Shown here piece after piece: positions 18,234-41,910 of a stretch of 64,000 nt of DNA. Origin of the DNA: an uncultured Clostridia bacterium (GTDB lineage Bacteria; Bacillota; Clostridia; Oscillospirales; CAG-272); the NCBI GenBank assembly GCA_948466345.1, contig CAOKAC010000006.1:36200-100199 (forward strand), given 5' to 3'. Position 1 is the first letter of the stretch; each line of letters begins with the position of its first letter. Both the position numbers and the translations under genes were made by a program. The notes under the pieces were generated by a model that saw nothing but the letters and a program-made list of their open reading frames with translations, was not told the origin of the DNA and did no database searches.

Positions 18234-20471
18234 TTATCTAGGCTCAATTACCGGCCCGCTGCCGGAGTACAATCTTCTGTTAAAATCGATGGGATATGTT
18301 TGCTGCTGGATCCTGCTGAATACCTCTGCCAGTTCTGCCGCCGAAATTGGATTTCTGGCGCCATAATATGTGTCGGTCTCTCCTGGAATCACATCGTAAA
18401 AGCTCATTTTTTCCACTGGATAATACGACCACCGGGAAGGCGGCACATCCTGGTATTTGGCCTCATGAAAATCAATGGTATCCGGCAATGCCAAAATACG
18501 ATCAAAAATGGTTGCCAGTTCTTCCTTTGTCAAATTTTGACTAGGGCCGAACATATTTTCTCCAATCCCTTCAATAATGCCTCGACGGCGCAACGCGTTA
18601 ATCAGACCACTGCCCCAGTAGTCCACTGTATCAGAAAACGCTTCTCCTCCTGGCTCAGGCGTCAGACCGATTAAGTCCCCAATAACGACAGCCGCCTCAC
18701 CTCGGGTCAGTGGAGTATCCGCCGCTACAGGACGGTTGTTCCCACTACTATTCAGAATCCCAAGGATCCGTTCCAAAATTTCTTCATCGACAGCTGGCGG
18801 CGGGGGAGCAGGAACAATCGGGGGTACAGGCGGCGCTGTGCCCCCGTTTAAAGCCGCGGAATAAAAGTCCCATATTTCTGGAATTTCCTGTCCCAACGCC
18901 CAACTGCCCACACCTCTCAGATTTTCACGGTCAATGGTCTCAAGCTTCCATCTGGTAGACGCCGGGCTGTCATACCAAATATCGTAAACGCCGGGGGAAA
19001 GCACACGTCCGCCCCAAATTTGCGGAAGTGGATCCCCCTCTCGGATGATTACCGTCGCATTCGCCGACATGGTAGGCTGATCAAACCGAGTGGTAGCGGT
19101 ATAATTGTCCAAAAGAAACTGAACATCCTCCGCTGCAATACCGATTCCGCCCGCCGGGTCGCCGGTCTTCCAATATCGTCCATAAAAAGGAATTCCCATC
19201 ACAATCTTATCTCTGGGAACACCTTGATTGAGAGCATATTGAATGGAGCCCTCAAAAAAGTCGCTGCCGGCCACAGGACCAGGAGGACTTCCCACATAAG
19301 ATTCATCGTACGCCATGACCATGAGATAATCTGCAATAGACGCCAAGCGCGGATAATCATAAGAGCCCTGCCATCCTATCGTCAAATTATAGGGGTTGGC
19401 TGCAACCGCAACAGATAAAATTTTATCGGGGTCCAGGGCATCTCGCACTGATTCCACAAAAGCGGTATACGCGTCTCTTTGCTGCTCATTCACATTTTCA
19501 ATATCGATGTTTACACCGTCTAAGTCATACTGTTCCACCGTCTGGGCAATTTGCTGACTTAAAGCCTGTCGATTGTTCAGAGCGACAATTCCCTTGGCCC
19601 GATCCCAGTGATTGGAGATAAAAGGAACCACCTGAATGTTTTGTCGGTGCATTTCATTGATAAATTCTGTATCTATTTTCCCCGCGGGAGAGATCAGCAG
19701 ATTTCCTGCATCGTCTACTTCAAAGTAATCCGGGTAAATGGTATGAATGGAGTCATTGGTTTCATCCAGAATTTTCTTGTATGCTGCGCTATTGCCGGCA
19801 TATAAATACGTAAGACTTTCTCTTCCTTCTCTGGAAACAGGTGAAATAGAAGGAAGAATCGGCTCTGCCTCTTCCATCGGAAGATAAATCTCCTGCCCTA
19901 CATAAATAGAATTTGGATCCTCAATCTGCGGATTGGCCTCCAGCAATTCTTCTATTGTTGTTCCCAAACGCCTGGCGATCCCCCACAAGGTATCCCCTGC
20001 CTGCACCGTATAAGAAGCCTCCGCGTCGGCGGCCGTTGCAACAACATCTACTGGGCCACTTCTGTATTGGCCGGCCAGACGCCTAAATTCCTGTCCGCTT
20101 TTCTCGTTGTCCTGCTGCATGCTGCGTATACTACTACGAATACGAGAACGGCGAACATCGTCAAACGCATGATACACTCCTTCCATTTCCCGCCTGCCGG
20201 CTAAAATTCGGGCCGCGCCTTCTGCAGCAGAACGGACAGGAATCGTTTCCGACGCAGGAACAGCAGCGTTATGTCCCTTATAAAAACGGTATATCTGAGT
20301 AAGCGTATGTAAATGCCCTTTGGCCTGCTGCCCCAAACTGCGAAACCGCATCCGTTCCTGGCGGTTCTTTGTCTGCCTCTCCAATGTAGTACAGATATGT
20401 ATTTCACGATTTTTACAGCGAATCGCCTTTTCCAGCATACAGATTCTGTTCTGTAGTACAGATTCATTCAT
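18234..20471 (-). CDS. LysM + glycoside hydrolase family 18 (YaaH/SleL-like) + C-terminal SLH-repeat protein
   Basis: LysM at aa 154-197 (YTVQAGDTLWGIARRLG...YVGQEIYLP). GH18 catalytic DGVNIDIE. Pro-rich linker PPVPPIVPAPPPP. SLH-like repeats (FSDTVDYWGSGLINALRRRGIIEG...). No signal peptide. Confidence 0.8.
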   Translation of the reverse strand: MNESVLQNRICMLEKAIRCKNREIHICTTLERQTKNRQERMRFRSLGQQAKGHLHTLTQIYRFYKGHNAAVPASETIPVRSAAEGAARILAGRREMEGVYHAFDDVRRSRIRSSIRSMQQDNEKSGQEFRRLAGQYRSGPVDVVATAADAEASYTVQAGDTLWGIARRLGTTIEELLEANPQIEDPNSIYVGQEIYLPMEEAEPILPSISPVSREGRESLTYLYAGNSAAYKKILDETNDSIHTIYPDYFEVDDAGNLLISPAGKIDTEFINEMHRQNIQVVPFISNHWDRAKGIVALNNRQALSQQIAQTVEQYDLDGVNIDIENVNEQQRDAYTAFVESVRDALDPDKILSVAVAANPYNLTIGWQGSYDYPRLASIADYLMVMAYDESYVGSPPGPVAGSDFFEGSIQYALNQGVPRDKIVMGIPFYGRYWKTGDPAGGIGIAAEDVQFLLDNYTATTRFDQPTMSANATVIIREGDPLPQIWGGRVLSPGVYDIWYDSPASTRWKLETIDRENLRGVGSWALGQEIPEIWDFYSAALNGGTAPPVPPIVPAPPPPAVDEEILERILGILNSSGNNRPVAADTPLTRGEAAVVIGDLIGLTPEPGGEAFSDTVDYWGSGLINALRRRGIIEGIGENMFGPSQNLTKEELATIFDRILALPDTIDFHEAKYQDVPPSRWSYYPVEKMSFYDVIPGETDTYYGARNPISAAELAEVFSRIQQQTYPIDFNRRLYSGSGPVIEPR

Positions 20472-33488: not shown

Positions 33489-33767
33489 CTAATTCTTTTT
33501 CCAGCGTTTCAAATTAGGAAAGATTTCCTGCATCGCGGATGTTGCTTCCGCAACGCTGTTGTAAGGATTCCCTTTGGAAATAAGCGGGGCACAAAACGCA
33601 ATCATTTCTTCCATCGTTGTGTCACTGGTAAACTTACCGTTCTTGTAGCAATAAACGCAATAATCTGCATTTTTTCGCCCATCTACATTTGTTCCGTAGT
33701 CCTCCTCTTTTACCATAGGCATAGCGCAGCTTTGACAAAATACAGTCGTTTCGTCTTTCATATGCAT
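33489..33767 (-). CDS. zinc-ribbon domain protein (Zn_ribbon_2-like)
   Basis: CQSCAMPM...ADYCVYCY gives two CxxC pairs in a small 92-aa protein. Start at the ATG at 33767, 5 nt after GGAGA. Confidence 0.6.
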   Translation of the reverse strand: MHMKDETTVFCQSCAMPMVKEEDYGTNVDGRKNADYCVYCYKNGKFTSDTTMEEMIAFCAPLISKGNPYNSVAEATSAMQEIFPNLKRWKKN

Positions 33768-33836
33768 CTTTATCTCCATTTCTTTTTTTAATTTTAGGAT
33801 TTATAAATCCCAAGCCATTTACAGTATATATTTTAC

Positions 33837-33860
33837 AATATGACAGCAGCGTGTCATATT
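33837..33860. promoter_or_regulatory. palindromic operator candidate O1: AATATGACA-N6-TGTCATATT
   Basis: Perfect 9-bp inverted arms. O1 overlaps the stop codon of the WYL gene. It also covers a plausible -35 (ATGACA), 16-nt spacer and TAAAAT promoter for the zinc-ribbon gene. Confidence 0.45.
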
Positions 33861-34764
33861 ATTTATATTTATCTACAATTTCTGCCGCTTTGTCTTGTAT
33901 AAGCGTCCGCAATGCGGCAGGCTGCAGCACTTCAACCATTCCTCCAAAAGACAATATAAATCCCCATACCCAATCGTCCAGAGGCCATGTAACAGAAACC
34001 AGAAATTCGCCATCCTCTTGCGGGGTAATTTGCGATGCGTCAAATGTATCATATAATCGATATGCCGCTTGTGAAGCAAAGCGCATTTTTATGCAACAAG
34101 TGCTAACGATTGCTGTTTTCTTATTATCCGCCGCTGATTTCTCTGTCTCCTCATGTTGACCTGCAAACGTAGTATCTGTTACAGTAAAATTCTGCATCCT
34201 CGTCAACTTGAAGATACGATAATCTTTTTTGCATAAGCAGTACCCATACATATACCATGCGCGGTCCTTAAAACGAATCTGAATCGGCTCTACCTTTCTA
34301 TGCGACTTCTCGCCACAGCTATTATAATAATCAAAAGCTACAATTGTCCTCTTCAGTATTGCTGTCTTCAGCGCATCAAAAAGGTCCAGATTGGAGTTTC
34401 CCCAATCTGAAAAATCTACGTCCAGCCATGGTACCGCATTTTTGGAAAAAAAGGTGCTGAGCTTATTCAATACAGGCGCAGTATCTCCAGGTCCTACAGA
34501 GGCAAATCCATATAAAGCCGACAGAATATCATTTTGCTCCGCATCGCTAAGCAAAGATTTATCCAACACGAAATCCTGTAAAAGAGAAATTCCCCCGCTC
34601 TTTCCTTTTCTAGTATATACAGGCACACCTGCAAGGGACAGTATGTCTATATCCCGGTAAATGGTTCGCTGAGACACTTCAAAATATTCGGCAAGCTCCT
34701 TTGCAGTTACAGTTCCTTTCTTCAACAAAATATAAACAATTTGGAATAATCGATTGGTTCGCAT
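33859..34764 (-). CDS. YafY-family transcriptional regulator (HTH + WYL domain)
   Basis: MRTNRLFQIVYILLKKGTVTAKELAEYFEVSQRTIYRDIDILSLAGVPVY (DeoR-type HTH_11), then a WYL region (RKVEPIQIRFKDRAWYMYGY) and a WCX-like tail. Confidence 0.8.
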   Translation of the reverse strand: MRTNRLFQIVYILLKKGTVTAKELAEYFEVSQRTIYRDIDILSLAGVPVYTRKGKSGGISLLQDFVLDKSLLSDAEQNDILSALYGFASVGPGDTAPVLNKLSTFFSKNAVPWLDVDFSDWGNSNLDLFDALKTAILKRTIVAFDYYNSCGEKSHRKVEPIQIRFKDRAWYMYGYCLCKKDYRIFKLTRMQNFTVTDTTFAGQHEETEKSAADNKKTAIVSTCCIKMRFASQAAYRLYDTFDASQITPQEDGEFLVSVTWPLDDWVWGFILSFGGMVEVLQPAALRTLIQDKAAEIVDKYK

Positions 34765-34801
34765 AAACACACCGCCCTTCTAATTAATAGTATACCACAA
34801 T

Positions 34802-34825
34802 AATATGACATAATCATGTCATATT
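34802..34825. promoter_or_regulatory. palindromic operator candidate O2: AATATGACA-N6-TGTCATATT (arms extend to 13 bp, 34799-34828)
   Basis: Half-sites and spacing are identical to O1. O2 lies immediately upstream of an extended -10 (TGgTATACT on the minus strand) for the WYL gene. Confidence 0.5.
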
Positions 34826-34831
34826 ATTAAT

Positions 34832-34863
34832 AAAACGGCACAGGAAAAGCTGCGCCGTTTTTT
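34832..34863 (-). terminator. terminator ending the phage-derived block
   Basis: ACGGCACAG / CTGCGCCGT stem (8 of 9 pairs) flanked by A and T runs, 14 nt past the LysM gene stop at 34877. Confidence 0.55.
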
Positions 34864-34876
34864 CCAATATTCTTTT

Positions 34877-35680
34877 TTATACAGTTGCCCGAAGAAGTTC
34901 TATATAATCTAAAAACTTTTCGTAATCCGCGTCGGACAATGTCTCATATTTATCTAAAAGAAAGCTGCCCTCATCTAGATAATTCTTGATCATATCATTG
35001 TATCGATCCCACTGGGCATCATCCAAAGAAGACAACAGCTTAATCTGGTCATGTAGTTGGTCCCCCTCATCAATAAATCGGCCATATGCCGCTTCATACA
35101 GCTGCGGAATCACTTGCGCCAGCTCCTGCATATGTGCCCCATATGCCTGCTGCCCTACAGACTGAGCATAAGTGTTGCCCATACCGCCGGTCATAGCCGC
35201 AGCCTTTCCCATTGCATCCAGCATAGCAAGCCGTCCGCTTTGGGTATACACATCTTTATAGTTTTGGTATAAAGGATCCTGCAGGGGATCATAAGAAAAT
35301 TGTCTTCCCGTTGCTGCACCAATCAGGGAATCCAGTTTTTCACTGTATGCACTATCATAGGCGCTAGGTTTTTTCTTTCCCCAGTCATCCAGTTCTGCGC
35401 CAGCATCCTTCACACGATTGCTGGGCAGATATCCGCTGCTATGATATGTATCCCGATTTCCTGAAGGTCCGCCATAGATCGAGTACCAAACATCCGCCGT
35501 TTCGGATACTTCTCTATCTCCCCCGGAAGCGTTGCCGCTGTCCGGAATTTGCAGCGTATTGCCTGTATAGATCAAATTTTTATTTTTGATATTGTTGGTA
35601 CTGGCCAACGCATCCACCGTTGTATTATGTTTCTTTGCAATGGAGGTCAGTGTATCTCCTTTTTTGATCGTATATGTCAT
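34877..35680 (-). CDS. LysM-domain protein with an uncharacterised helical C-terminal domain (phage-associated)
   Basis: N-terminal LysM (YTIKKGDTLTSIAKKHNTTVDALASTNNIK...GNTLQIP). No signal peptide. The C-terminal part carries YDPLQDPLYQNYKDVY...TGGMGNTYAQSVGQQAY. Strong SD (AAAGGAG). Confidence 0.75.
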   Translation of the reverse strand: MTYTIKKGDTLTSIAKKHNTTVDALASTNNIKNKNLIYTGNTLQIPDSGNASGGDREVSETADVWYSIYGGPSGNRDTYHSSGYLPSNRVKDAGAELDDWGKKKPSAYDSAYSEKLDSLIGAATGRQFSYDPLQDPLYQNYKDVYTQSGRLAMLDAMGKAAAMTGGMGNTYAQSVGQQAYGAHMQELAQVIPQLYEAAYGRFIDEGDQLHDQIKLLSSLDDAQWDRYNDMIKNYLDEGSFLLDKYETLSDADYEKFLDYIELLRATV

Positions 35681-35853
35681 TGTTTGCTCCTTTCTTCCAG
35701 CTGTGCGCGTACATCTCGATTGAAATTTTCATACCCCAAATTTGCCAATACCACATTTAATGTATCGGTAAGACTGTAGAGCCAGCTGATAAGCTGCGCC
35801 GTATTGTTCTGCGCCTCCTCTGTGATGGGAGGCGGATCCATATGAAATTTCAT
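35677..35853 (-). CDS. 58-aa ORF below the ORF-track cutoff, translationally coupled to the LysM gene
   Basis: My own translation: MKFHMDPPPITEEAQNNTAQLISWLYSLTDTLNVVLANLGYENFNRDVRAQLEERSKQ. GAGGAAG SD. Its TGA overlaps the LysM ATG (ATGA), and its 3' end carries the LysM SD. Confidence 0.55.
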   Translation of the reverse strand: MKFHMDPPPITEEAQNNTAQLISWLYSLTDTLNVVLANLGYENFNRDVRAQLEERSKQ

Positions 35854-35875
35854 ACTTCCTCACACCTTTCGATTG

Positions 35876-37684
35876 CTATAGCTTCCACCGTTTTGCGCCG
35901 CAATTCTCTGTCTGTTTGGTAATAGAACAAATGACTGCATCCCCCGTACCGGATATTCGGAGACGAAAATGATCACATCTGCGTGGCCGCAGCGGAATTT
36001 CCACAGCGCTCTTTTTTCTCCCCTCAATAACCTGCTGCCGTCGCCATACACCGTCACTGTCATATTCCACATCCACCTGTACACGACTACCGAAAGGAAT
36101 ATCCAGACGTAGCTGCAGCATAGTCACATATATATGATCCGGTGTCTCATACTCCAGTTCTGCAGTCTCGCAGTACCAGGAGACAGGAGGTTCCAAAGCA
36201 CCTGCATTTTCTTCGTTCCGTCCGTTATAGGAACCACCTACAGTATACACTTGATTTCCTTCTTCTCCATCACAAAGCATATATAGTTCCCTGCCGCAAC
36301 GGCAAAAATCTTTTACTGAAATATCGTCCTCTTTATGCCACTGACGCTTTACCGTATCGTAAGTAAGCAAACTGCGCCTGCCGGACATATCCTCCATAGA
36401 TATAAAGTATCGGTCGTCCACTCCTCCAGCCACAGCATTTTTCCATTTGGTATTGCTAAGCGCTGCATCTATATTCACAGGAATCCCACCGTCATATTTG
36501 ACGACTCCGTTGGCAGATTTGTAATACAGCACATCATTTACAACTACTGCGCTTTTAGCACTTCCACTTTCAATTCCGCGCAGTGCATGTTCCGTCATGG
36601 TAAATTCCGCAGGATAGTCGCCGTATATTTTAATAATAGTATCCTCTTTAAAAAATATCGGCTTTCCATCATAGCATACCGCACCAGTAAATACGCCGCA
36701 AGAACCTACAGATGCCTGCCAGGAGTCTGTAGAAACGCCAAGAAACTTCCGCCAGTTTTTTGGATCCCCCAAGGCGCTGGCATATATCTCATTAATAGGC
36801 TTTCCGGCGGCGTCTACTCCATATCGGCAACCCCATAAGCGGTTTCCAGCAGCCACTACATAATCCATATCTGGTACAAGCCGGGAAACGGTAACAATTG
36901 TCCCACCCATTTGGACAATCGTTTTAGAGGCTGTAATTACAATATACTGATGCAGAGGATCTACTTTTTGAATGCTGTAGTCTCCATTCAGCTCCTTGTC
37001 AGAAAAACCCGAAATCGTTACCGTATCCATGTCAGAAAAGCCGGTAGTATATGCCACATTGGTTACAAAATCCCCTTTTTCCCCGTTTACCAACTTATAC
37101 CGTTTGCGCATCAAACGCCTGTAAGATGTTTCTTTCTCCGTCGGGTTTCCGTCCAAATCGCAGGGCTCTAAAACTACTTCAAAATAACCGTCTCCCCCCG
37201 GACTGTAAATCGCTCCGGTTTCCAGTTGGGCAACCGCTTCCAGCTTGCCAAGATCCGTGAGATCCATCAAATTGACGTAAAACTTATCTGGAAAAAAATA
37301 TACATACCCGCCAGATACAACGCCCACTTTTTCTGTGTCCAATGTTTCAAACATAGCAGGACCTGCCACATCCTTAAAATGTAAAACGCCATCGTCTTTA
37401 TAATAAAAAGCGCGAATACGCTCTCCACGTACCGCAACCAGCGCGTTTTGATGAATCGTATCATTCAAACATAAATCCAAAGAAGAAAGCCCGTATATTT
37501 TGTAATCTCCCAAATTCATAATTCCGCGCCTGTCTCGGACAGATATTCTCGGGGAATGCTTTCCAGACATATTTTTCATATCAAGGAATCCACCGGCAGC
37601 AGGCTTTGCCCGTTTATCCAGTCCCGTAAATGCAGTAAGTATCGTTTTGCTGCGTTTGTTTGCTTTCAGTCCCGTCACTCTCAT
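35876..37684 (-). CDS. 602-aa beta-rich phage structural protein of unknown role
   Basis: Position in the block and composition, with repeated strand-like segments (YVYFFPDKFYVN, NRLWGC, VLYYKSANGVVKYDGG, RYFISMEDMSGRRSLLTYD, ELYMLCDG). I recognise no motif. Confidence 0.5.
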   Translation of the reverse strand: MRVTGLKANKRSKTILTAFTGLDKRAKPAAGGFLDMKNMSGKHSPRISVRDRRGIMNLGDYKIYGLSSLDLCLNDTIHQNALVAVRGERIRAFYYKDDGVLHFKDVAGPAMFETLDTEKVGVVSGGYVYFFPDKFYVNLMDLTDLGKLEAVAQLETGAIYSPGGDGYFEVVLEPCDLDGNPTEKETSYRRLMRKRYKLVNGEKGDFVTNVAYTTGFSDMDTVTISGFSDKELNGDYSIQKVDPLHQYIVITASKTIVQMGGTIVTVSRLVPDMDYVVAAGNRLWGCRYGVDAAGKPINEIYASALGDPKNWRKFLGVSTDSWQASVGSCGVFTGAVCYDGKPIFFKEDTIIKIYGDYPAEFTMTEHALRGIESGSAKSAVVVNDVLYYKSANGVVKYDGGIPVNIDAALSNTKWKNAVAGGVDDRYFISMEDMSGRRSLLTYDTVKRQWHKEDDISVKDFCRCGRELYMLCDGEEGNQVYTVGGSYNGRNEENAGALEPPVSWYCETAELEYETPDHIYVTMLQLRLDIPFGSRVQVDVEYDSDGVWRRQQVIEGRKKSAVEIPLRPRRCDHFRLRISGTGDAVICSITKQTENCGAKRWKL

Positions 37685-37695
37685 ACTACACCTGC

Positions 37696-38067
37696 CTATA
37701 AAGTGATATTACCCACAGACAAAGGCATATGGGTACGGTTATACCAGTCGCAAAAGGACGTATACGCTGCCGCAAACAGAGCGGCAGCATTGTTATATTG
37801 ATTCATATCCTGAAGCAGTAAATTTGACCGCATCATTAGATAAAACACGTATAATTCCCCGTAAGGGTCTTTAGCAAGCAGTTCCCTCTCTCCATCGTCT
37901 TCTCCAAAAGGCGTCCAATCTCCCCACTCTGGTGCACCTGCATGCGTACAGATAATTTCTTCATACAGCATAGATTCAACATCAGAAAGCCAACGCAGTT
38001 TTGCTTCCCTGCCATAATTGTCTCCAGTCATTTCGTCGCAGCGGGCAATTGCTTCATTTACAGTCAT
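37696..38067 (-). CDS. 123-aa phage head-completion/connector-like protein (uncharacterised family)
   Basis: MTVNEAIARCDEMTGDNYGREAKLRWLSDVE...YNNAAALFAAAYTSFCDWYNRTHMP. From memory, this pattern recurs downstream of capsid genes in Firmicute prophages. AAAGAGGGG SD. Confidence 0.45.
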   Translation of the reverse strand: MTVNEAIARCDEMTGDNYGREAKLRWLSDVESMLYEEIICTHAGAPEWGDWTPFGEDDGERELLAKDPYGELYVFYLMMRSNLLLQDMNQYNNAAALFAAAYTSFCDWYNRTHMPLSVGNITL

Positions 38068-38139
38068 ACAAATCCCCTCTTTCTTGTATGGGCTATGGCG
38101 CTGCCAGCGCCATAGCCCCTCTCTTTTCATATGAGGACG

Positions 38140-38370
38140 TCAGCCGTTGGCGTACGCCTCAATAAATGCTTCCGCCGCCGCATCCTGCCGCAGTGAGTTT
38201 TCAATCACTTCAGCATAGCGAAGCGGCACCTCCACGTTTTTTCCTGTCTGAATCAACATGTTTTCCCCATTAACAGCTACATACCGTTCTGTATCGTTTT
38301 TATTTTTTCGGGGAATAAAAACAGTTCTCGTTTCTTCTTTTTCAGAAGTATTTTTTAAAGCTTTTGCCAT
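38140..38370 (-). CDS. 76-aa phage protein immediately downstream of the capsid gene
   Basis: MAKALKNTSEKEETRTVFIPRKNKNDTERYVAVNGENMLIQTGKNVEVP..., with a GATGAGGA SD. Function unknown. Confidence 0.5.
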   Translation of the reverse strand: MAKALKNTSEKEETRTVFIPRKNKNDTERYVAVNGENMLIQTGKNVEVPLRYAEVIENSLRQDAAAEAFIEAYANG

Positions 38371-38400
38371 GTCTGTATCCTCATCTTTCAAAATGATTCT

Positions 38401-39765
38401 TTAGTTTGTTTCAATAGAACTGCCGTTGAAGGACGAACCGGATTCAACTCGCAGCATATATTCTTCTACCAATCTTGCAGCCGCCTTTGTAGCCTTCCAG
38501 CCCACAGATGATCTTTGATTCAAGGGATCGTTGCCATATCCTTTCTGTTTTACAATATGTTCGATCCCGCCGCCGCCAATATCCGTGGTACCGTATGCAT
38601 TTGCTCCTAAAAACATAGTTGCAAAGACAGCAGCTCCATCCTTTCCGCAATTTGCGGAAATAAGCTTGTCGCCAGAAGTATAGGTTACTCCTGAAAGAGG
38701 TGCGTCCAGATAAATATATTTCGATGTAGTGTTCACACCTACAATGGTTGCAAATACCTTTCCGGAAGTATTGGTATAATAAATATCCCGGCCTACAAGT
38801 GCATCTGTAACCGATTCAGAAACTGTTACCCGGCTTTCTGTGGCAATACCGCTTGTACAGGTGCCAGCTGACGCAGAATCGGTATATGCAGTCACTGTCA
38901 GCTCTTTTGCAAAGCCCAGATTTCCATCATGATATACCTTTGCCTCCGTCGTTTGTACAAAGCGTACGCCGCCAAGAGTGCCGATCTCACCCTGGAGTAC
39001 GGTAGCAGGATCTGTATATTTTTGAATGTCCAGCCACTGTCCCTCTGCATCCTGCATCAAATCGTATGCTACATATGGGTGAATCACAGCTACATAAGAA
39101 CCATCAATAGAAGGAGCATTCATAGCTTTCAATATTGCAGCAGCCTTAAATACATCCTTTACGCGCAGTTTCGCATCCGCGCCCAAATCGCTGCGGGAAG
39201 TGACTTCTGTCTCCTTGCCGTCAGCAGATACCTTCGGACAGTAATACACATTCGTACCGCCAATAATCTGATTGCGAACGACTGTGTCTATTGTTCTTCC
39301 TGCCTGATCTGCCAACTGCTTTGTCGCCTCTACTACAATGGGATCCACACTGGTCAGTTCGATCATGTCTGTTAATTCTACATAATCGCCGTACTGGTCT
39401 ACAGTAGTAGTTACAGGAACAACAGTCAGCTTGCTTCCGGTAGGTGTAACGCCTTCCGTGATAGGCGTCAATGCCTTTGGCAGACTAGAAAATTTACGAA
39501 ATTCAATGGTTTTGCCGCCATTTTGCGGAATGGGACGTTTTTGACCAAACTGGTCAAAAACAAGACTCGGTCCAGATAGCTCAATCAGAGTCTTATCGTA
39601 AAATGTCTTCATTTCTGCGGACAAGCCGCTTTCACTGCCTGGTGTCGCCACATAATCTTGGCTATTTGCTGGCGCGTTTACATTTACAAATGCCTGTGTA
39701 CCGTGTACAACCTCCCCCGCACCAAACAACTGCAAATCCAGCATTCCCTTACATGATCTTGTCAT
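38401..39765 (-). CDS. phage major capsid protein, HK97 fold, N4-gp56-like family
   Basis: 454 aa with MKTFYDKTLIE...FDQFGQKRPIPQNGGKTIEFRKFSSLPKALTPITEGVTPTG...YGDYVELTD, the signature I associate with N4-gp56-family capsids. GGAGAAAGGA SD. Confidence 0.78.
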   Translation of the reverse strand: MTRSCKGMLDLQLFGAGEVVHGTQAFVNVNAPANSQDYVATPGSESGLSAEMKTFYDKTLIELSGPSLVFDQFGQKRPIPQNGGKTIEFRKFSSLPKALTPITEGVTPTGSKLTVVPVTTTVDQYGDYVELTDMIELTSVDPIVVEATKQLADQAGRTIDTVVRNQIIGGTNVYYCPKVSADGKETEVTSRSDLGADAKLRVKDVFKAAAILKAMNAPSIDGSYVAVIHPYVAYDLMQDAEGQWLDIQKYTDPATVLQGEIGTLGGVRFVQTTEAKVYHDGNLGFAKELTVTAYTDSASAGTCTSGIATESRVTVSESVTDALVGRDIYYTNTSGKVFATIVGVNTTSKYIYLDAPLSGVTYTSGDKLISANCGKDGAAVFATMFLGANAYGTTDIGGGGIEHIVKQKGYGNDPLNQRSSVGWKATKAAARLVEEYMLRVESGSSFNGSSIETN

Positions 39766-39793
39766 CTTTTTTCCTTTCTCCGCCGTTGCGGAA

Positions 39794-40603
39794 TCAGAAT
39801 TTTACTTTCGCGCCGTGCTCCACCCGCCGAAGAATATCTCGTATTCCCCGTCCGGTTAAATGCTCGACACTGGTCTTTCGAGAAATTCCCGATTGGCCCT
39901 TGACTCCGTTTTCATCAGGCCGTGCAACTTCTTTGCGAAGCAACTCTGCCGCTCGCTTAGTCCCTTTTTCCGTGGCCTGTTGTACAGCAGCTTGCAGCAA
40001 CTGATTAAAATGTACCGCTTGCCATGCCTCTTCCATAGAAAATCCAGCACGGAGCAGTCCACAAAAGCGCCTGTCAGACAGCTCTTTCTCCAGATTGAAT
40101 CCCCGTACCTTTTTAGAAAGCGCTCCAGCTTCATCTAGAAGCATTTGATACTGCTTTGCAGCGCTTCGCCGGCGCAGTCTTTCCTCTAACGCATTTTTGG
40201 TTTCGGTTCGACCAAGAGCATCCGCAATTCCATCAACATCTGTTTCCTGCATTTGGTACATAGCCGCAAGTCTTTGTATTATGCGTACTGCTCCACCTGG
40301 CAGTGTGTCCATTAGGGACGCAGGCTCCTGTACTATATTTTCCCCTTGGACTGTTTTCTCCTGTACAGATTGTCCGCTACCCTCGAGGGTAGCGGTTTCC
40401 CCGCTCTCTCTGCCAACCGGTGCAGCGGAGCGGCTCTGCTGTTTTACAGTTCTTTGGGCACTGCCTGTGCGCTCTTTTTCGTTTTCGGACTGTTCTGCAG
40501 CACAGTCCATTGTTTGCGCACTAGGATGTTCAGAACTTTGCACACCGCTATTAGCGCCGCCTTCTTCACCAAACAGGCGTAGATTCAATGAAACTTTTTT
40601 CAT
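39794..40603 (-). CDS. phage scaffolding-like protein
   Basis: Directly upstream of the capsid gene. It has a low-complexity S/Q/E-rich N-terminal half and a helical C-terminal half ending RPDENG...SVEHLTGRGIRDILRRVEHGAKVKF. Start MKKVSLNLRLFG follows AAAGTGAGG. The 65 upstream codons in the ORF track were trimmed. Confidence 0.65.
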   Translation of the reverse strand: MKKVSLNLRLFGEEGGANSGVQSSEHPSAQTMDCAAEQSENEKERTGSAQRTVKQQSRSAAPVGRESGETATLEGSGQSVQEKTVQGENIVQEPASLMDTLPGGAVRIIQRLAAMYQMQETDVDGIADALGRTETKNALEERLRRRSAAKQYQMLLDEAGALSKKVRGFNLEKELSDRRFCGLLRAGFSMEEAWQAVHFNQLLQAAVQQATEKGTKRAAELLRKEVARPDENGVKGQSGISRKTSVEHLTGRGIRDILRRVEHGAKVKF

Positions 40604-40640
40604 GTCAACCTCACTTTCTGACTTCGCGGAGTCTGAAGCT

Positions 40641-40649
40641 ATTATAGCA
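40641..40649 (-). promoter_or_regulatory. extended -10 promoter element (TGcTATAAT) for the phage-derived block
   Basis: The minus strand reads CTGCTATAAT, 38 nt upstream of the scaffold ATG and just downstream of the deoB terminator. The -35 is weak. Confidence 0.45.
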
Positions 40650-40702
40650 GCGCAAAAAGCCCCCGTCTCCCTTAGAAAACCGGATTCGCATTTTTGCAAC
40701 AG

Positions 40703-40733
40703 AAAAGACGGCGTCACTCCACGCCGTCTTTTT
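40703..40733 (-). terminator. deoB terminator hairpin overlapping the deoB stop codon
   Basis: AGACGGCGT / ACGCCGTCT 9-bp stem (40706-40714 / 40721-40729). The stop codon (40714-40716) sits at the junction of stem and loop, and TTTT follows on the minus strand. Confidence 0.5.
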
Positions 40734-41910
40734 GAATCAATTGTAAAAAGGATTTCCCATAAAGCATATGTGCATCCGCCCCCAGCAGTTCTGTACACGT
40801 TTTTCCAAGATCTCCAAAACAGGTCCGTGTACCCAAAGAAACAGATGCAATTTTCGGTCCCGCAATGAGCACGGGCACAAACTCCCTTGTGTGGTCTGTG
40901 CCAATATAGCCTGGATCACATCCGTGATCCGCTGTTACGATCATACAATCTTCCGCTTCCAGCATTCCATATAGCTGCTGCAAAAAACGGTCCATATCCA
41001 TTACCGCCCCCGCATATCCTGCCGAATCCCGCCGATGGCCATACTGCATATCGAAATCCACTAAATTTACAAAACAAAGTCCTACAAAAGACTCCCGGCA
41101 CACATTCAGCGTTTTTGCCATACCATCCGCATTGGACTGCGTGTGTATTTCACGAGTAATTCCTCTGTGTGCAAAAATATCACCTATTTTCCCAATACCG
41201 ATAACTTCCATTCCAGCTTTTGCAATGCAGTCACACATAGTTTCTGCAGGAGGCTCGAGGGCATAGTCCCTGCGATTGGACGTCCGCACAAAGCTTGGCT
41301 CCCCCCCTGCAAAGGGTCGGGCAATCACCCTGCCTACCGCATGAGGACCGGATAACAGTTTACGCGCCTCTTCACAGTACCGATACAAATCTTCTACAGG
41401 AATCACATTTTCATGGGCAGCAACCTGAAAAACGCTGTCCGCTGAAGTGTATACAATTAGCTTTCCTGTTTCCATATGCTCACGGCCAAAGTCCCGAATT
41501 ACTTGAGTGCCGGAATAAGGTTTATTGCATAGCCATCCTCTGCCCCACTTGCTGCTGATTTCTTCCATCAGCTCCTGCGGGAATCCATCCGGATAGGTTG
41601 GCATTTTCACATTGGAAACAAGACCAGCGATTTCCCAATGCCCTGTCACCGTATCCTTGCCCGCAGATACCTCACGCATACGCCCGTATGCCCCAATTGG
41701 TTGACTGATACGATACCTGTCTGTAGGCATCCCCTCCAAATTTTCAATCCCCATCCGTGTCAAAAAAGGCGCTGAAAAATTCTCATGCCTACATAAAGTT
41801 CCATAGGTGTCGCTCCCGCTATCATCCCCATCTCCGTTATGATATTTGTCGGCATCCGGAGCCGCTCCCACACCCATACTGTCTGCCACTATCAAAAATA
41901 TTCTTTTCAC
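40714..41910 (-). CDS. deoB: phosphopentomutase
   Basis: MKRIFLIVADSMGVG, GKDTVTGHWEIAG, NLVDFDMQYGHRRD and TADHGCDP, the metal-binding motifs of DeoB. Confidence 0.9.
   Translation of the reverse strand: MKRIFLIVADSMGVGAAPDADKYHNGDGDDSGSDTYGTLCRHENFSAPFLTRMGIENLEGMPTDRYRISQPIGAYGRMREVSAGKDTVTGHWEIAGLVSNVKMPTYPDGFPQELMEEISSKWGRGWLCNKPYSGTQVIRDFGREHMETGKLIVYTSADSVFQVAAHENVIPVEDLYRYCEEARKLLSGPHAVGRVIARPFAGGEPSFVRTSNRRDYALEPPAETMCDCIAKAGMEVIGIGKIGDIFAHRGITREIHTQSNADGMAKTLNVCRESFVGLCFVNLVDFDMQYGHRRDSAGYAGAVMDMDRFLQQLYGMLEAEDCMIVTADHGCDPGYIGTDHTREFVPVLIAGPKIASVSLGTRTCFGDLGKTCTELLGADAHMLYGKSFLQLIQKDGVE

Follow-up and report, generated by a model that had tools for sequence, protein, structure and literature searches.

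Why would a gut Clostridia chromosome carry seven phage-derived structural genes among housekeeping genes, with no other part of a phage beside them? We addressed this question for one such locus in a 64-kb stretch of chromosome, referred to here as the window.

Layout and control region of the locus

The block (g1–g7, 5.8 kb) occupied positions 34877–40603 on the minus strand. All seven ORFs were co-directional and intact and lay where the first-pass annotation, made from the sequence only, had placed them. Each began with ATG and, as that annotation had also maintained, was preceded by a purine-rich Shine-Dalgarno-like stretch; the gaps from g1 to g7 were 28, 30, 72, 11, 22 and −4 nt. The features were as follows.

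40685–40699, minus strand: upstream palindrome TTGCAAAAATGCGAA (TGCA-N4-TGCR), candidate regulator-binding site ~15 nt 5' of GGGAGA
40641–40671, minus strand: promoter core, GGGAGA (40666–40671), 19-nt spacer, TATAAT (40641–40646)
40620–40634, minus strand: operator-like palindrome AGACTCCGCGAAGTC, immediately downstream of the −10
39794–40603, minus strand: g1, probable scaffolding protein, 269 aa (phrog_13908 at 1.8e-27)
38401–39765, minus strand: g2, major capsid protein of the N4-gp56 family, 454 aa (TIGR04387)
38140–38370, minus strand: g3, small conserved virion-module protein, 76 aa (phrog_15239 at 5.5e-10)
37696–38067, minus strand: g4, probable head-to-tail adaptor, 123 aa (phrog_12105 at 6.8e-33)
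35876–37684, minus strand: g5, predicted podovirus tail nozzle, 602 aa, all-beta (AlphaFold2 and Foldseek)
35677–35853, minus strand: g6, small helical protein, 58 aa, like the N-terminus of longer relatives
34877–35680, minus strand: g7, 267 aa, with LysM (1–46), a disordered linker (48–81) and a conserved all-helical core
34832–34861, minus strand: intrinsic terminator at the operon end, 3' of g7, 12-bp stem

The terminator previously claimed after the block was confirmed (−17.9 kcal/mol, z = −4.25; equal stability in 0 of 200 shuffles), and the deoB terminator hairpin was visible in the sequence at 40701–40728. Placement of the block between deoB and mrnC held on the deoB side only, as genes for a WYL regulator and a Zn-ribbon protein sat between g7 and mrnC. 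Public gene calls gave g1 a 307-aa start that overlapped deoB.

Using tblastn with family members, we found no terminase, portal, Prp, lysin or fibre gene in the 64-kb window, and these functions were equally absent among the strongest 25 PHROG families matched by its other 55 ORFs, families that were of housekeeping type except for two generic matches labelled 'minor tail protein' and 'endolysin'. Both searches upheld the earlier statement that the window held no other phage genes, which was also correct in respect of a phage-type prohead protease. Portal and terminase genes were absent within 34 kb on one side of the block and 23 kb on the other. For the block itself, no integrase, repressor, replication gene, TerS, att site or repeat was found, no pseudogenes were found among its genes, and PADLOC returned zero matches for its seven proteins.

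To describe relatives, we distinguish loci with the seven genes only (class B) from full-length chromosomal clusters (class A). All class-B loci had GGGAGA-N19-TATAAT 5' of the scaffold gene, and the GGGAGA-N19-TAnAAT type, common to both classes, preceded TerS in class-A relatives and, in class-A group A3, additionally the scaffold gene. Judged by this distribution, GGGAGA-N19-TATAAT is the family's own predicted 'late-type' promoter; in the block it lacks a normal −35. Since full-length relatives use this promoter type too and, in A3, have it before the scaffold gene, the scaffold-to-g7 part would already be a separate, movable transcription unit. The extended −10 proposed earlier survived in part: TATAAT was conserved, whereas the TG was specific to the window genome and not kept in relatives.

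The two palindromes were class-B features, lacking in class A. TTGCAAAAATGCGAA stood at the same position 5' of the scaffold gene in 18 of 18 aligned class-B loci and was not seen at the promoters of class-A relatives. The position of AGACTCCGCGAAGTC was constant across class-B lineages, its inner bases varying with the symmetry kept (TCATGA, TTGCAA, TCGCGA); as RNA it formed no stable hairpin (−7.1 kcal/mol, z = 0.02), so it is more likely a DNA operator than an RNA element. When metagenomes were scanned for the promoter together with the palindrome, matches lay only 5' of class-B scaffold genes, and no second operon with this signature was found.

Proteins encoded by the block

PHROG families were matched by g1, g3, g4 and g5. 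The probable scaffold gene g1 (dN/dS 0.2–0.3) directly preceded that of the capsid, an arrangement also seen in phage Page and class-A islands. The 454-aa product of g2 had correctly been called an N4-gp56 capsid, scoring 260 bits against TIGR04387 (family cutoff, 60); it also matched phrog_1357 (3.6e-81) and Pfam Phage_capsid_3/4 and shared 36% identity with the capsid of Bacillus phage Page (dN/dS of g2, 0.03–0.06). Predicted Prp (L27-type) cleavage motifs were present at the N-termini of both g1 (MKKVSLNLRLF↓GEE) and g2 (...MLDLQLF↓GAGE), and that of the capsid was kept in every class-B lineage; the L27-like motif described for Prp cleavage is MLxx(D/N)LQ(F/L)F'A (PMC9405229). These motifs were absent from the first-pass annotation. 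Scaffold and capsid of Staphylococcus phage 80alpha, which has no phage prohead protease, are likewise cut by host Prp at an N-terminal L27-like motif, but 80alpha is a siphovirus whose capsid belongs to an unrelated lineage, and cleavage in the block is predicted from the motif only.

The small protein g3 (dN/dS 0.02–0.05) occupied the same position in both classes. Immediately 5' of the nozzle gene, just as gp4 precedes gp10 in P22, g4 (dN/dS 0.04–0.11) probably encodes the head-to-tail adaptor; a profile search with g4 against PDB sequences gave no match. A Foldseek search, which the first-pass annotation had proposed for the 602-aa ORF, pointed to a podovirus tail nozzle: the best 24 PDB matches of the g5 model (pLDDT 88.9, pTM 0.84) were all podovirus tail or portal-tail complexes (E 5e-15 to 6e-11), including the PhiM1 nozzle, the T7 tail, the P22 gp10-gp26 entry 8eap, SU10 and Sf6. 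g5 also aligned to the C-terminal part of phrog_511 (dN/dS 0.04–0.07) and, on its modelled fold, is a podovirus tail nozzle. With a nozzle and probably an adaptor encoded, the description of the block as head-type only was refuted. The nozzle identity did not appear in that annotation.

Nearly all family members had a 42–65 aa ORF between the nozzle and g7, equivalent in position to g6 (dN/dS 0.02–0.05), and longer proteins at this position (180–384 aa) in A3 and L021-type loci shared an N-terminal ...SWLYxLxxxLNxVLxNL..ENF. The helical core of g7 (signature FSYD..DPLY..LTGGxGNxYA; dN/dS 0.06–0.07) was conserved in class A and on 40–46 kb phage contigs. Its N-terminal wall-binding module was interchanged among relatives (LysM, PG_binding, dockerin-like) and was absent in one class-B lineage. 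In the window protein LysM was recognised by Pfam at 1.1e-15, and Foldseek matches of the AlphaFold2 model (pLDDT 80.4) were confined to it.

Conservation and full-length relatives

Within the Candidatus Avispirillum lineage, ~21 species-level genomes carried the same seven genes and promoter architecture. Housekeeping genes were the neighbours in the window and in all genomes of this lineage carrying the block, and those upstream varied by lineage (deoB, DUF4317 adjoining pgi, MurD and others). For g2–g7, dN/dS was 0.02–0.11, compared with 0.12 for deoB and about 0.12 for the transglutaminase-domain gene in the flanks; dS of the block was about equal to that of the flanks, which argues against recent horizontal copies. 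Class-B capsids formed a single clade in a neighbour-joining tree. Public assemblies contained the exact g2 capsid sequence in 56 indexed blocks, and among the matches listed for it the context was the same in 6 of 6 places. The block is inherited vertically in this lineage of gut Clostridia.

In other species, 279 kb of class-B loci contained no gene for a terminase, portal, Prp, fibre or lysin, and no packaging or portal gene lay near the block in any of ~20 class-B genomes. A cross-genome comparison, also proposed in the first-pass annotation, found the block present with low dN/dS, and no relative in which it formed one end of a complete prophage, one having genes for integration, regulation or replication. 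Retention rather than decay, which that annotation had favoured, is strongly supported by occurrence in ~21 species, strong purifying selection and the conserved private promoter.

At ~45 Oscillospirales class-A loci, a TerS candidate, TerL (Terminase_3/6N), a P22-type portal and a Prp protease preceded the same seven genes, and amidase, GH25 and fibre genes followed them, all of which the window block lacks. These clusters (e.g. L044, L046 and L056; MAGs of Acutalibacteraceae, Oscillospiraceae and Ruminococcaceae) spanned 12–14 kb and carried a homologous scaffold-to-g7 part in the same order, with capsids 53–59% identical to that of the window; group A3, which adjoins a MecA gene, was the sister clade of the window capsid. 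Class-A flanks were of housekeeping type (GpsA, UDG, MecA, flavin reductase, MFS transporter, DUF218). In many species the clusters had a common chromosomal site, and they had diverged in step with their flanks; a fixed site and such parallel divergence are hallmarks of gene transfer agents (GTAs).

A probable gene transfer agent-type element and its alternatives

Faecalibacterium prausnitzii carries a podovirus-like gene transfer agent, FpGTA, whose two operons (I and II) are separated by 125 kb (Borodovich et al., Nat Commun 2026, PMC12946183). The genes of operon I are, in order, TerS, TerL, portal, Prp, N4-gp56 capsid, unknown, adaptor (7sp4) and nozzle (8eap), and 3' of the nozzle lie one undetected ORF and then an abundant 'TolA-like' protein (PMC12946183). 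Genes g2–g7 kept this order from the capsid to the last gene, and g2 fell in the same NCBIfam family as the FpGTA capsid. Positional equivalents were RCH50848 for g3 ('unknown', detected in FpGTA particles), RCH50847 for g4 (annotated 'Adaptor (PDB 7sp4)') and RCH50844 for g7 (third most abundant FpGTA particle protein); RCH50846 is annotated 'Tail nozzle (PDB 8eap)', an entry that the g5 model also matched. By gene order, common family annotation and common best PDB entries, the block corresponds to the distal portion of FpGTA operon I. The first-pass annotation did not include this correspondence.

Both elements are chromosomal podovirus-type structural clusters of gut Oscillospirales hosts without replication or integration genes. 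We take Faecalibacterium to belong to Ruminococcaceae, Oscillospirales (GTDB). Common to both are the N4-gp56 capsid, Prp-type processing and an adaptor (predicted and probable, respectively, in the window element), a P22-gp10-like nozzle (8eap) and, two genes after the nozzle, a protein that is abundant in FpGTA and corresponds in position to g7. FpGTA sits at more than one locus, and the same split is proposed for the window element. In FpGTA, TerS, TerL, portal and Prp directly precede the capsid genes, whereas the window locus and the whole 64 kb lack them; unlike in FpGTA, the scaffold-to-g7 part of the window element has its own promoter and two extra palindromes. The order scaffold, coat, adaptor, nozzle and distal proteins is also that of P22-like podoviruses and Bacillus phage Page (Pagevirus), and a P22-type portal is present in the full-length relatives; those, however, are complete ~40 kb phages with replication, regulation and lysis genes, of which the block has none.

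We consider it probable, if only modestly so, that the block is one operon, that for capsid and tail hub, of a multi-locus element of FpGTA type which arose by domestication of a podovirus. Gene transfer agents of this type are also called viriforms. The promoter and its two flanking operator-like palindromes would place the seven genes under host control, and scaffold and capsid protein would co-assemble into a small procapsid. Their N-terminal propeptides would be cut at the L27-like LxLF↓G/A site by the host ribosomal protease Prp, proposed because the element's own Prp gene is absent from the locus. After DNA packaging, g4 and g5 would seal the portal vertex, and g6 and the wall-binding helical protein g7 would finish the particle. 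Genes for the portal, terminase, fibres and lysis, without which a particle could not work, would lie at other loci, much as FpGTA (operons I/II) and RcGTA are split. We infer that portal and terminase lie elsewhere in the genome and that particles form and carry DNA. An adaptor and nozzle make sense only with a portal, yet both are strongly constrained, which counts for a portal existing; against this reading stand the absence of packaging and portal genes from the window and the 279 kb of other class-B loci, and the failure of the signature scan to yield a second operon. RcGTA and other alphaproteobacterial GTAs are likewise domesticated, vertically inherited phage structural modules under purifying selection, with multi-locus genomes and host control; they are siphovirus-type and unrelated in sequence, implying no homology, and their main cluster includes terminase and portal, unlike the block.

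Alternatively, the block could be an exapted relic that lost its portal, terminase, fibre and lysis genes and was kept for a function other than DNA transfer, such as a closed portal-less shell, procapsid- or encapsulin-like, perhaps released or wall-associated via LysM. We regard this as doubtful, though the likeliest of the alternatives. In P22- and HK97-type phages, scaffold and coat proteins can build portal-less shells; the ~20 class-B genomes and the signature scan fit such a loss, and the class-B-specific palindromes suggest rewired control. However, adaptor and nozzle are as constrained as the capsid while having no known role absent a portal, one class-B lineage lacks the g7 LysM, and split loci are, by the FpGTA precedent, normal for this family. 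Encapsulins share with the block a chromosomal HK97-fold shell gene with no portal or terminase nearby, but they lack scaffold, adaptor and nozzle and their cargo bears targeting peptides. The block retains and conserves scaffold, probable adaptor and nozzle, has no cargo-like gene and matches phage capsid families only, with no encapsulin-family match, which speaks against the encapsulin-like compartment suggested earlier. An improbable reading is a module silent until a related phage or GTA provides a late-gene activator, portal and terminase, when its head and tail-hub proteins would join assembly; the outcome could be interference (non-infectious, fibre-less or chimeric particles as population-level defence) or diversion of packaging to host DNA. 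The late-type promoter without a normal −35 is consistent with this, as are 40–46 kb phage contigs encoding a related capsid (45–66% identical) and nozzle (35–37%), on some of which (L210, L208, L243, L224) head and neck cassettes are shuffled or missing. Yet phage relatives of the class-B capsid in IMG/VR are at most 66% identical, short class-B-like fragments aside, making co-assembly partners distant; interference would need fewer than seven retained genes, and full-length chromosomal relatives use the same promoter in clusters without a phage regulator. The decoy reading has no positive evidence, including from PADLOC.

Chance survival of the block as one end of a decayed prophage is very unlikely, even with all seven proteins phage-derived and several parts of a complete virion module missing. 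This ordinary remnant, the decayed stub of the first-pass annotation, is contradicted by seven ORFs intact in ~21 species, dN/dS for g2–g7 no higher than in the flanking genes, a conserved promoter and terminator, the lack of pseudogenes, integrase and att repeats, and the lack of any relative with a complete prophage ending in the block. Slighter still is the chance of a phage satellite, such as a capsid-forming PICI with its own heads and tails stolen from a helper: small capsid-gene clusters without tail fibres fit, and cf-PICI-like clusters are reported in mouse-gut Clostridia, but the block encodes its own nozzle, has no integrase, repressor, replication gene, TerS or att site, and is fixed between chromosomal housekeeping genes and vertically inherited.

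A whole gut-bacterial genus keeps this seven-gene block intact without DNA-packaging or portal genes nearby; if portal and terminase are absent from these genomes, the module has a new role.

Gene content of the block and its surroundings

The seven co-directional ORFs that the first-pass annotation reported on the minus strand between deoB and mrnC were recovered at the same coordinates. Each has an ATG start and a purine-rich Shine-Dalgarno-like sequence, and the intergenic gaps range from -4 to 72 nt.

Genes of the block
39794-40603, minus strand: g1, probable scaffold
38401-39765, minus strand: g2, capsid
38140-38370, minus strand: g3, small protein
37696-38067, minus strand: g4, most likely the adaptor
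35876-37684, minus strand: g5, tail nozzle by predicted structure
35677-35853, minus strand: g6, small protein
34877-35680, minus strand: g7, LysM/helical protein

Both proposed boundaries also held, with the operon starting after the deoB terminator (hairpin at 40701-40728) and ending at a hairpin terminator (34832-34861, -17.9 kcal/mol, z = -4.25). In public annotation the scaffold is called as 307 aa (39794-40798), with its start inside the 3' end of deoB; we favour the 269-aa g1 starting at 40603 because of the positions of the promoter, the Shine-Dalgarno site and the protease motif described below.

Outside the block, the window carries housekeeping genes (SMC, FtsY, RNase III, TopA, ribosomal proteins, RelA and RecJ), together with yabP-yabQ-divIC and an operon of MoxR, DUF58 and transglutaminase genes. 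The description of the block as flanked by housekeeping genes was accurate for both sides, except that genes for a WYL regulator and a Zn-ribbon protein intervene between g7 and mrnC. The reported lack of terminase, portal and lysin genes in the 64 kb was upheld, as tblastn with the relatives' terminase, portal, Prp, lysin and fibre proteins gave no match; terminase, portal and integrase were also absent from the 25 strongest PHROG families matched by the other 55 ORFs of the window, and no att-like direct repeats were found flanking the block. Two generic PHROG matches were observed among the non-block ORFs, namely an 'endolysin' match, the source of which is probably a 745-aa ORF (18234-20471) with a LysM-like motif at residue 153, and a 'minor tail protein' match (phrog_3432).

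The palindrome AATATGACA-N7-TGTCATATT occurs twice in the window (33837-33867 and 34802-34832), with one copy 5' of the WYL-domain regulator gene (33859-34770, minus strand) and the other 5' of the Zn_ribbon_2 gene (33489-33779, minus strand). From this arrangement the two genes look like a self-contained WYL-regulated unit. A link between the regulator and the block was rejected, since the palindrome is found at these two genes and not in the block's promoter, and the unit is confined to the closest relatives of the window.

Identity of the encoded proteins and comparison with FpGTA

The block is clearly phage-derived. Proteins g1, g3, g4 and g5 matched PHROG families, and g2 scored 260 bits with TIGR04387 (N4-gp56 capsid), for which the cutoff is 60. 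The same family name is borne by RCH50849.1 of FpGTA, the first podovirus-like gene transfer agent (GTA), from Faecalibacterium prausnitzii (Borodovich et al., Nat Commun 2026, PMC12946183). FpGTA particles measure about 40 nm and contain 8.4-8.9 kb of random host DNA, and the element is encoded by two operons 125 kb apart (PMC12946183). Operon I encodes TerS, TerL (RCH50852), portal (50851), Prp (50850), the N4-gp56 capsid (50849), an unknown protein (50848), an adaptor (50847, PDB 7sp4), a nozzle (50846, PDB 8eap), one undetected ORF and a 'TolA-like' protein (50844), the latter being the third most abundant particle protein, while operon II encodes a fibre, a receptor-binding protein, holin and endolysin (PMC12946183). 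By position and annotation, g2 to g7 match RCH50849 to RCH50844 one for one, so that the FpGTA order of capsid, small protein, adaptor, nozzle, small protein and abundant helical protein is found in the window. In contrast, the TerS, TerL, portal and Prp genes of the FpGTA operon are absent from the window.

The first-pass annotation had described a head-only block, and this was not borne out, as the 602-aa g5 was read from its predicted structure as a podovirus tail nozzle. AlphaFold2 gave a confident all-beta model (pLDDT 88.9, pTM 0.84), for which the top 24 PDB matches by Foldseek were all podovirus tail or portal-tail complex entries (E 5e-15 to 6e-11), including PhiM1, HRP29, T7, Kp7, SU10, P22 gp10 (8eap) and Sf6; as in FpGTA, the P22-gp10-like nozzle is preceded by a probable adaptor. 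This adaptor, g4, was assigned from position and from the FpGTA annotation, and is the most likely identity because the block has a P22-type gene order (8-5-4-10-... in P22) and the full-length clusters of relatives described below carry P22-type portals. Profile searches with g4, g5 and g7 against PDB sequences returned nothing significant.

The N-termini of g1 (MKKVSLNLRLF'GEE) and g2 (...MLDLQLF'GAGE) carry an L27-type site, MLxx(D/N)LQ(F/L)F'A, the target of the ribosomal protease Prp, which also matures the scaffold and capsid of 80alpha (PMC9405229; PMC5744158). The protease acting on g1 and g2 would likely be the host Prp, because full-length clusters encode a Prp of their own and clusters of the window's type do not. 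In two related loci (L065 and L070) the scaffold ORFs (401 and 389 aa) have a Prp protease domain fused at the N-terminus; such a fusion may be the reason that the FpGTA 'Prp' RCH50850 lies directly upstream of the capsid RCH50849 without a separate scaffold accession.

In nearly all relatives, nozzle and g7 are separated by a small ORF (42-65 aa) at the position of g6, which in some of them forms the N-terminus of a longer protein. Protein g7 consists of a LysM domain, also matched by sequence, a disordered linker and long helices (AlphaFold2 pLDDT 80.4); Foldseek with this model matched the LysM domain and returned no structural match for the helical core. The core is kept family-wide, while the wall-binding N-terminal module is swapped among relatives and absent in one lineage of class B (defined below). 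None of g1 to g7 matched the PADLOC anti-phage defence models, and the neighbouring WYL regulator matched only generic WYL models.

Relatives, selection and the control region

A scan covering one genome per species detected 280 places that encode capsid relatives, and the best 80 loci, among which there were none from Faecalibacterium, were kept for ORF calling, protein clustering and gene maps. Two classes were distinguished. Class A comprised about 45 loci with capsids 53-59% identical to g2, from MAGs of Acutalibacteraceae, Oscillospiraceae and Ruminococcaceae, in which a small TerS-like gene, TerL, portal, Prp, scaffold, capsid and g3-g7 are followed by amidase/GH25 lysins and fibres (Pfam Terminase_3/6N, P22_portal, Peptidase_Prp, Amidase_3 and a fibre with Peptidase_S74); this is the architecture of FpGTA. 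Class B comprised the window and about 21 species-level genomes, mostly Candidatus Avispirillum, with capsids 67-98% identical, and contained scaffold to g7 and nothing else of the cluster; no TerL, portal or Prp homologue was found in 279 kb of class-B loci. The housekeeping-type genes upstream of class-B blocks vary by lineage (deoB; DUF4317 beside glucose-6-phosphate isomerase; MurD; a secreted protein), and downstream neighbours include mrnC and a transglutaminase gene, AlaS and AsnA.

Class-A flanks in the scanned representatives were also of housekeeping type (GpsA, UDG, MecA, flavin reductase, MFS transporter, DUF218 and a polysaccharide synthesis gene), and the clusters occupy the same chromosomal site in many species, with a divergence that tracks that of the flanks. 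Full 12-14 kb clusters (TerS, TerL, portal, Prp, scaffold, capsid, adaptor, nozzle and g7, with lysins and fibres present or absent) were observed at conserved sites in three groups, A1 (L036, L046, L047, L062, L075), A2 (L030, L053, L056, L078) and A3 (L025, L031, L044, L054, L057), and look like FpGTA-type elements spread widely across Oscillospirales. A few class-A loci, such as L055, L021 and L048, may be complete prophages because of runs of small ORFs of unknown function upstream. At a further locus, L252 (JAFTEP010000105.1, 1561-2940), the large terminase gene 5' of a family portal was called as two ORFs (281 and 110 aa) and may be broken in that lineage.

In IMG/VR, phage contigs of 40-44 kb carried capsids at most 66% identical, and the only closer matches were two short class-B-like fragments. 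Cassette order was shuffled in the phage group of the IMG/VR contigs L243, L224, L226 and L167: in L243 and L224, adaptor, nozzle, g6 and g7 come immediately after the portal, so that Prp, scaffold and capsid are missing from that interval, and L167 has the order TerL, scaffold, capsid, portal, nozzle.

The first-pass annotation favoured retention over decay, and this was supported. In comparisons of the window with its relatives L017, L001 and L002-L005, dN/dS was 0.03-0.06 for the capsid gene, 0.02-0.05 for g3, 0.04-0.11 for g4, 0.04-0.07 for g5 (0.12 on a partial alignment), 0.02-0.05 for g6, 0.06-0.07 for g7 and about 0.2-0.4 for the scaffold gene; deoB gave 0.12 and the transglutaminase gene 0.125. 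With ORFs intact in all lineages and dN/dS far below 1, the data contradict a decaying prophage remnant. Relative to L017, dS was 0.13-0.49 in the block and 0.37-0.50 in the flanks, which fits co-divergence of the block with the chromosome. Indexed public assemblies contain the exact capsid sequence in 56 blocks, and 6/6 places among those listed had the same context. In a neighbour-joining tree, class-B capsids formed one clade, the sister clade of which contains group A3, and a MecA gene lies near A3 clusters and near the window's block alike.

Upstream of the scaffold gene, one architecture was present in 18/18 aligned class-B loci, whatever the upstream neighbour: a T-rich stretch, TGCA-N4-TGCR, about 15 nt, GGGAGA, 19-20 nt, TATAAT, 5-6 nt and the palindrome AGACT-N6-AGTC, the inner bases of which vary by lineage with palindromy kept. 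The TG on which the 'extended -10' assignment had relied is not conserved in relatives. GGGAGA-N19-TAnAAT also occurs 5' of TerS in many class-A clusters and is therefore the family's own promoter type; in A3 it is found 5' of the scaffold gene as well, so that scaffold to g7 is already a separate transcription unit in relatives. Both palindromes are specific to class B. An RNA hairpin at the downstream palindrome was rejected, its stability being no better than that of shuffled sequence, and a DNA operator is therefore the more likely reading of this element. A second AGACT palindrome near a ThrE-like gene (L012, L016, L020) lies inside coding sequence and was considered coincidental.

Origin and possible function of the block

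Direct tests contradicted three alternatives: that the block is left over from an ordinary prophage, that it is a satellite, and that it is an encapsulin. The encapsulin-like compartment proposed initially does not agree with g2 matching phage capsid families only, or with the presence of scaffold, adaptor and nozzle. A satellite, also proposed, and considered here as the PICI/cf-PICI type, is at odds with the window having no integrase, repressor, replication module or flanking direct repeats, and host-gene synteny is conserved at the block, unlike at a mobile island. The block does show vertical inheritance under purifying selection across its host lineage (about 21 species), and consists of phage-like structural genes in the chromosome that are not accompanied by genes for replication, integration or lysogeny, both of which are features of GTAs.

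On the best-supported reading, the block represents the capsid and tail-hub operon of a domesticated element of FpGTA type carried by the Avispirillum lineage, and this element would have its portal, terminase, fibre and lysis genes at other loci. This reading is favoured because adaptor and nozzle have no known function absent a portal, yet are strongly constrained, and because the family is demonstrably divided among operons that have separate promoters. A mouse-gut preprint has also reported candidate GTAs of several clusters in Clostridia. The same constraint on adaptor and nozzle weighs against exaptation, in which Avispirillum truly lost portal, terminase, fibres and lysis and kept the head-neck module for a purpose other than DNA transfer, either as a portal-less compartment or particle or as an assembly decoy against related phages or GTAs. 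We consider exaptation unlikely, although capsid, scaffold, adaptor, nozzle and wall-binding protein are all under strong selection with a rewired promoter of their own, and scans with the promoter signature revealed no second operon in the metagenome and IMG/VR data. Of five metagenome matches to promoter and operator, the four that could be checked were all 5' of class-B scaffold genes and the fifth was on a contig too short to check; IMG/VR gave no match to the upstream palindrome with the promoter. Another, also less likely, reading is that the block relies on a related phage in trans.

Searches beyond the locus were also made with the portal. A protein-database search with the portal of class-A locus L021 gave more than 8000 matches, and the best 120, with the listing saturated by close matches, were all 55-90% identical and none was Avispirillum-named; three outlying matches were one ordinary full cluster and two short contigs from unrelated MAGs. 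In the IMG/VR portal scan, scaffold and capsid genes followed nearly all portals, with the exceptions of L208 and L210 (1-13608). These two contigs encode a DGR-type reverse transcriptase and an 860-aa fibre, TerS, TerL, portal, Prp, holin, amidase, integrase and a CI-like repressor, without scaffold, capsid, adaptor or nozzle, and were rejected as orphan host operons because they are temperate-phage-like, with integrase and DGR.

Overall, the block probably belongs to a recently described kind of element, and what is new is that the half for packaging and portal is missing in cis and that the control region is modified. The first description of podovirus-like GTAs from gut Clostridia dates from 2026 and concerned one genus; the capsid relatives in Acutalibacteraceae, Oscillospiraceae, Ruminococcaceae and Avispirillum point to a much wider family, the cluster of which is composed of movable operons. 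The Avispirillum form is a natural experiment in which strong selection maintains a head and tail-hub operon that has no packaging or portal genes in cis. Were the missing genes present at other sites, this would be a GTA of three or more loci with a defined promoter/operator signature, through which its regulon and regulator could be sought; were they lost, it would be a rare case in which capsid and neck genes of viral origin are kept for a new role in the cell. In both cases, the promoter motif, predicted Prp cleavage sites and gene set provide concrete targets for work on how capsids mediate DNA flow in gut communities.
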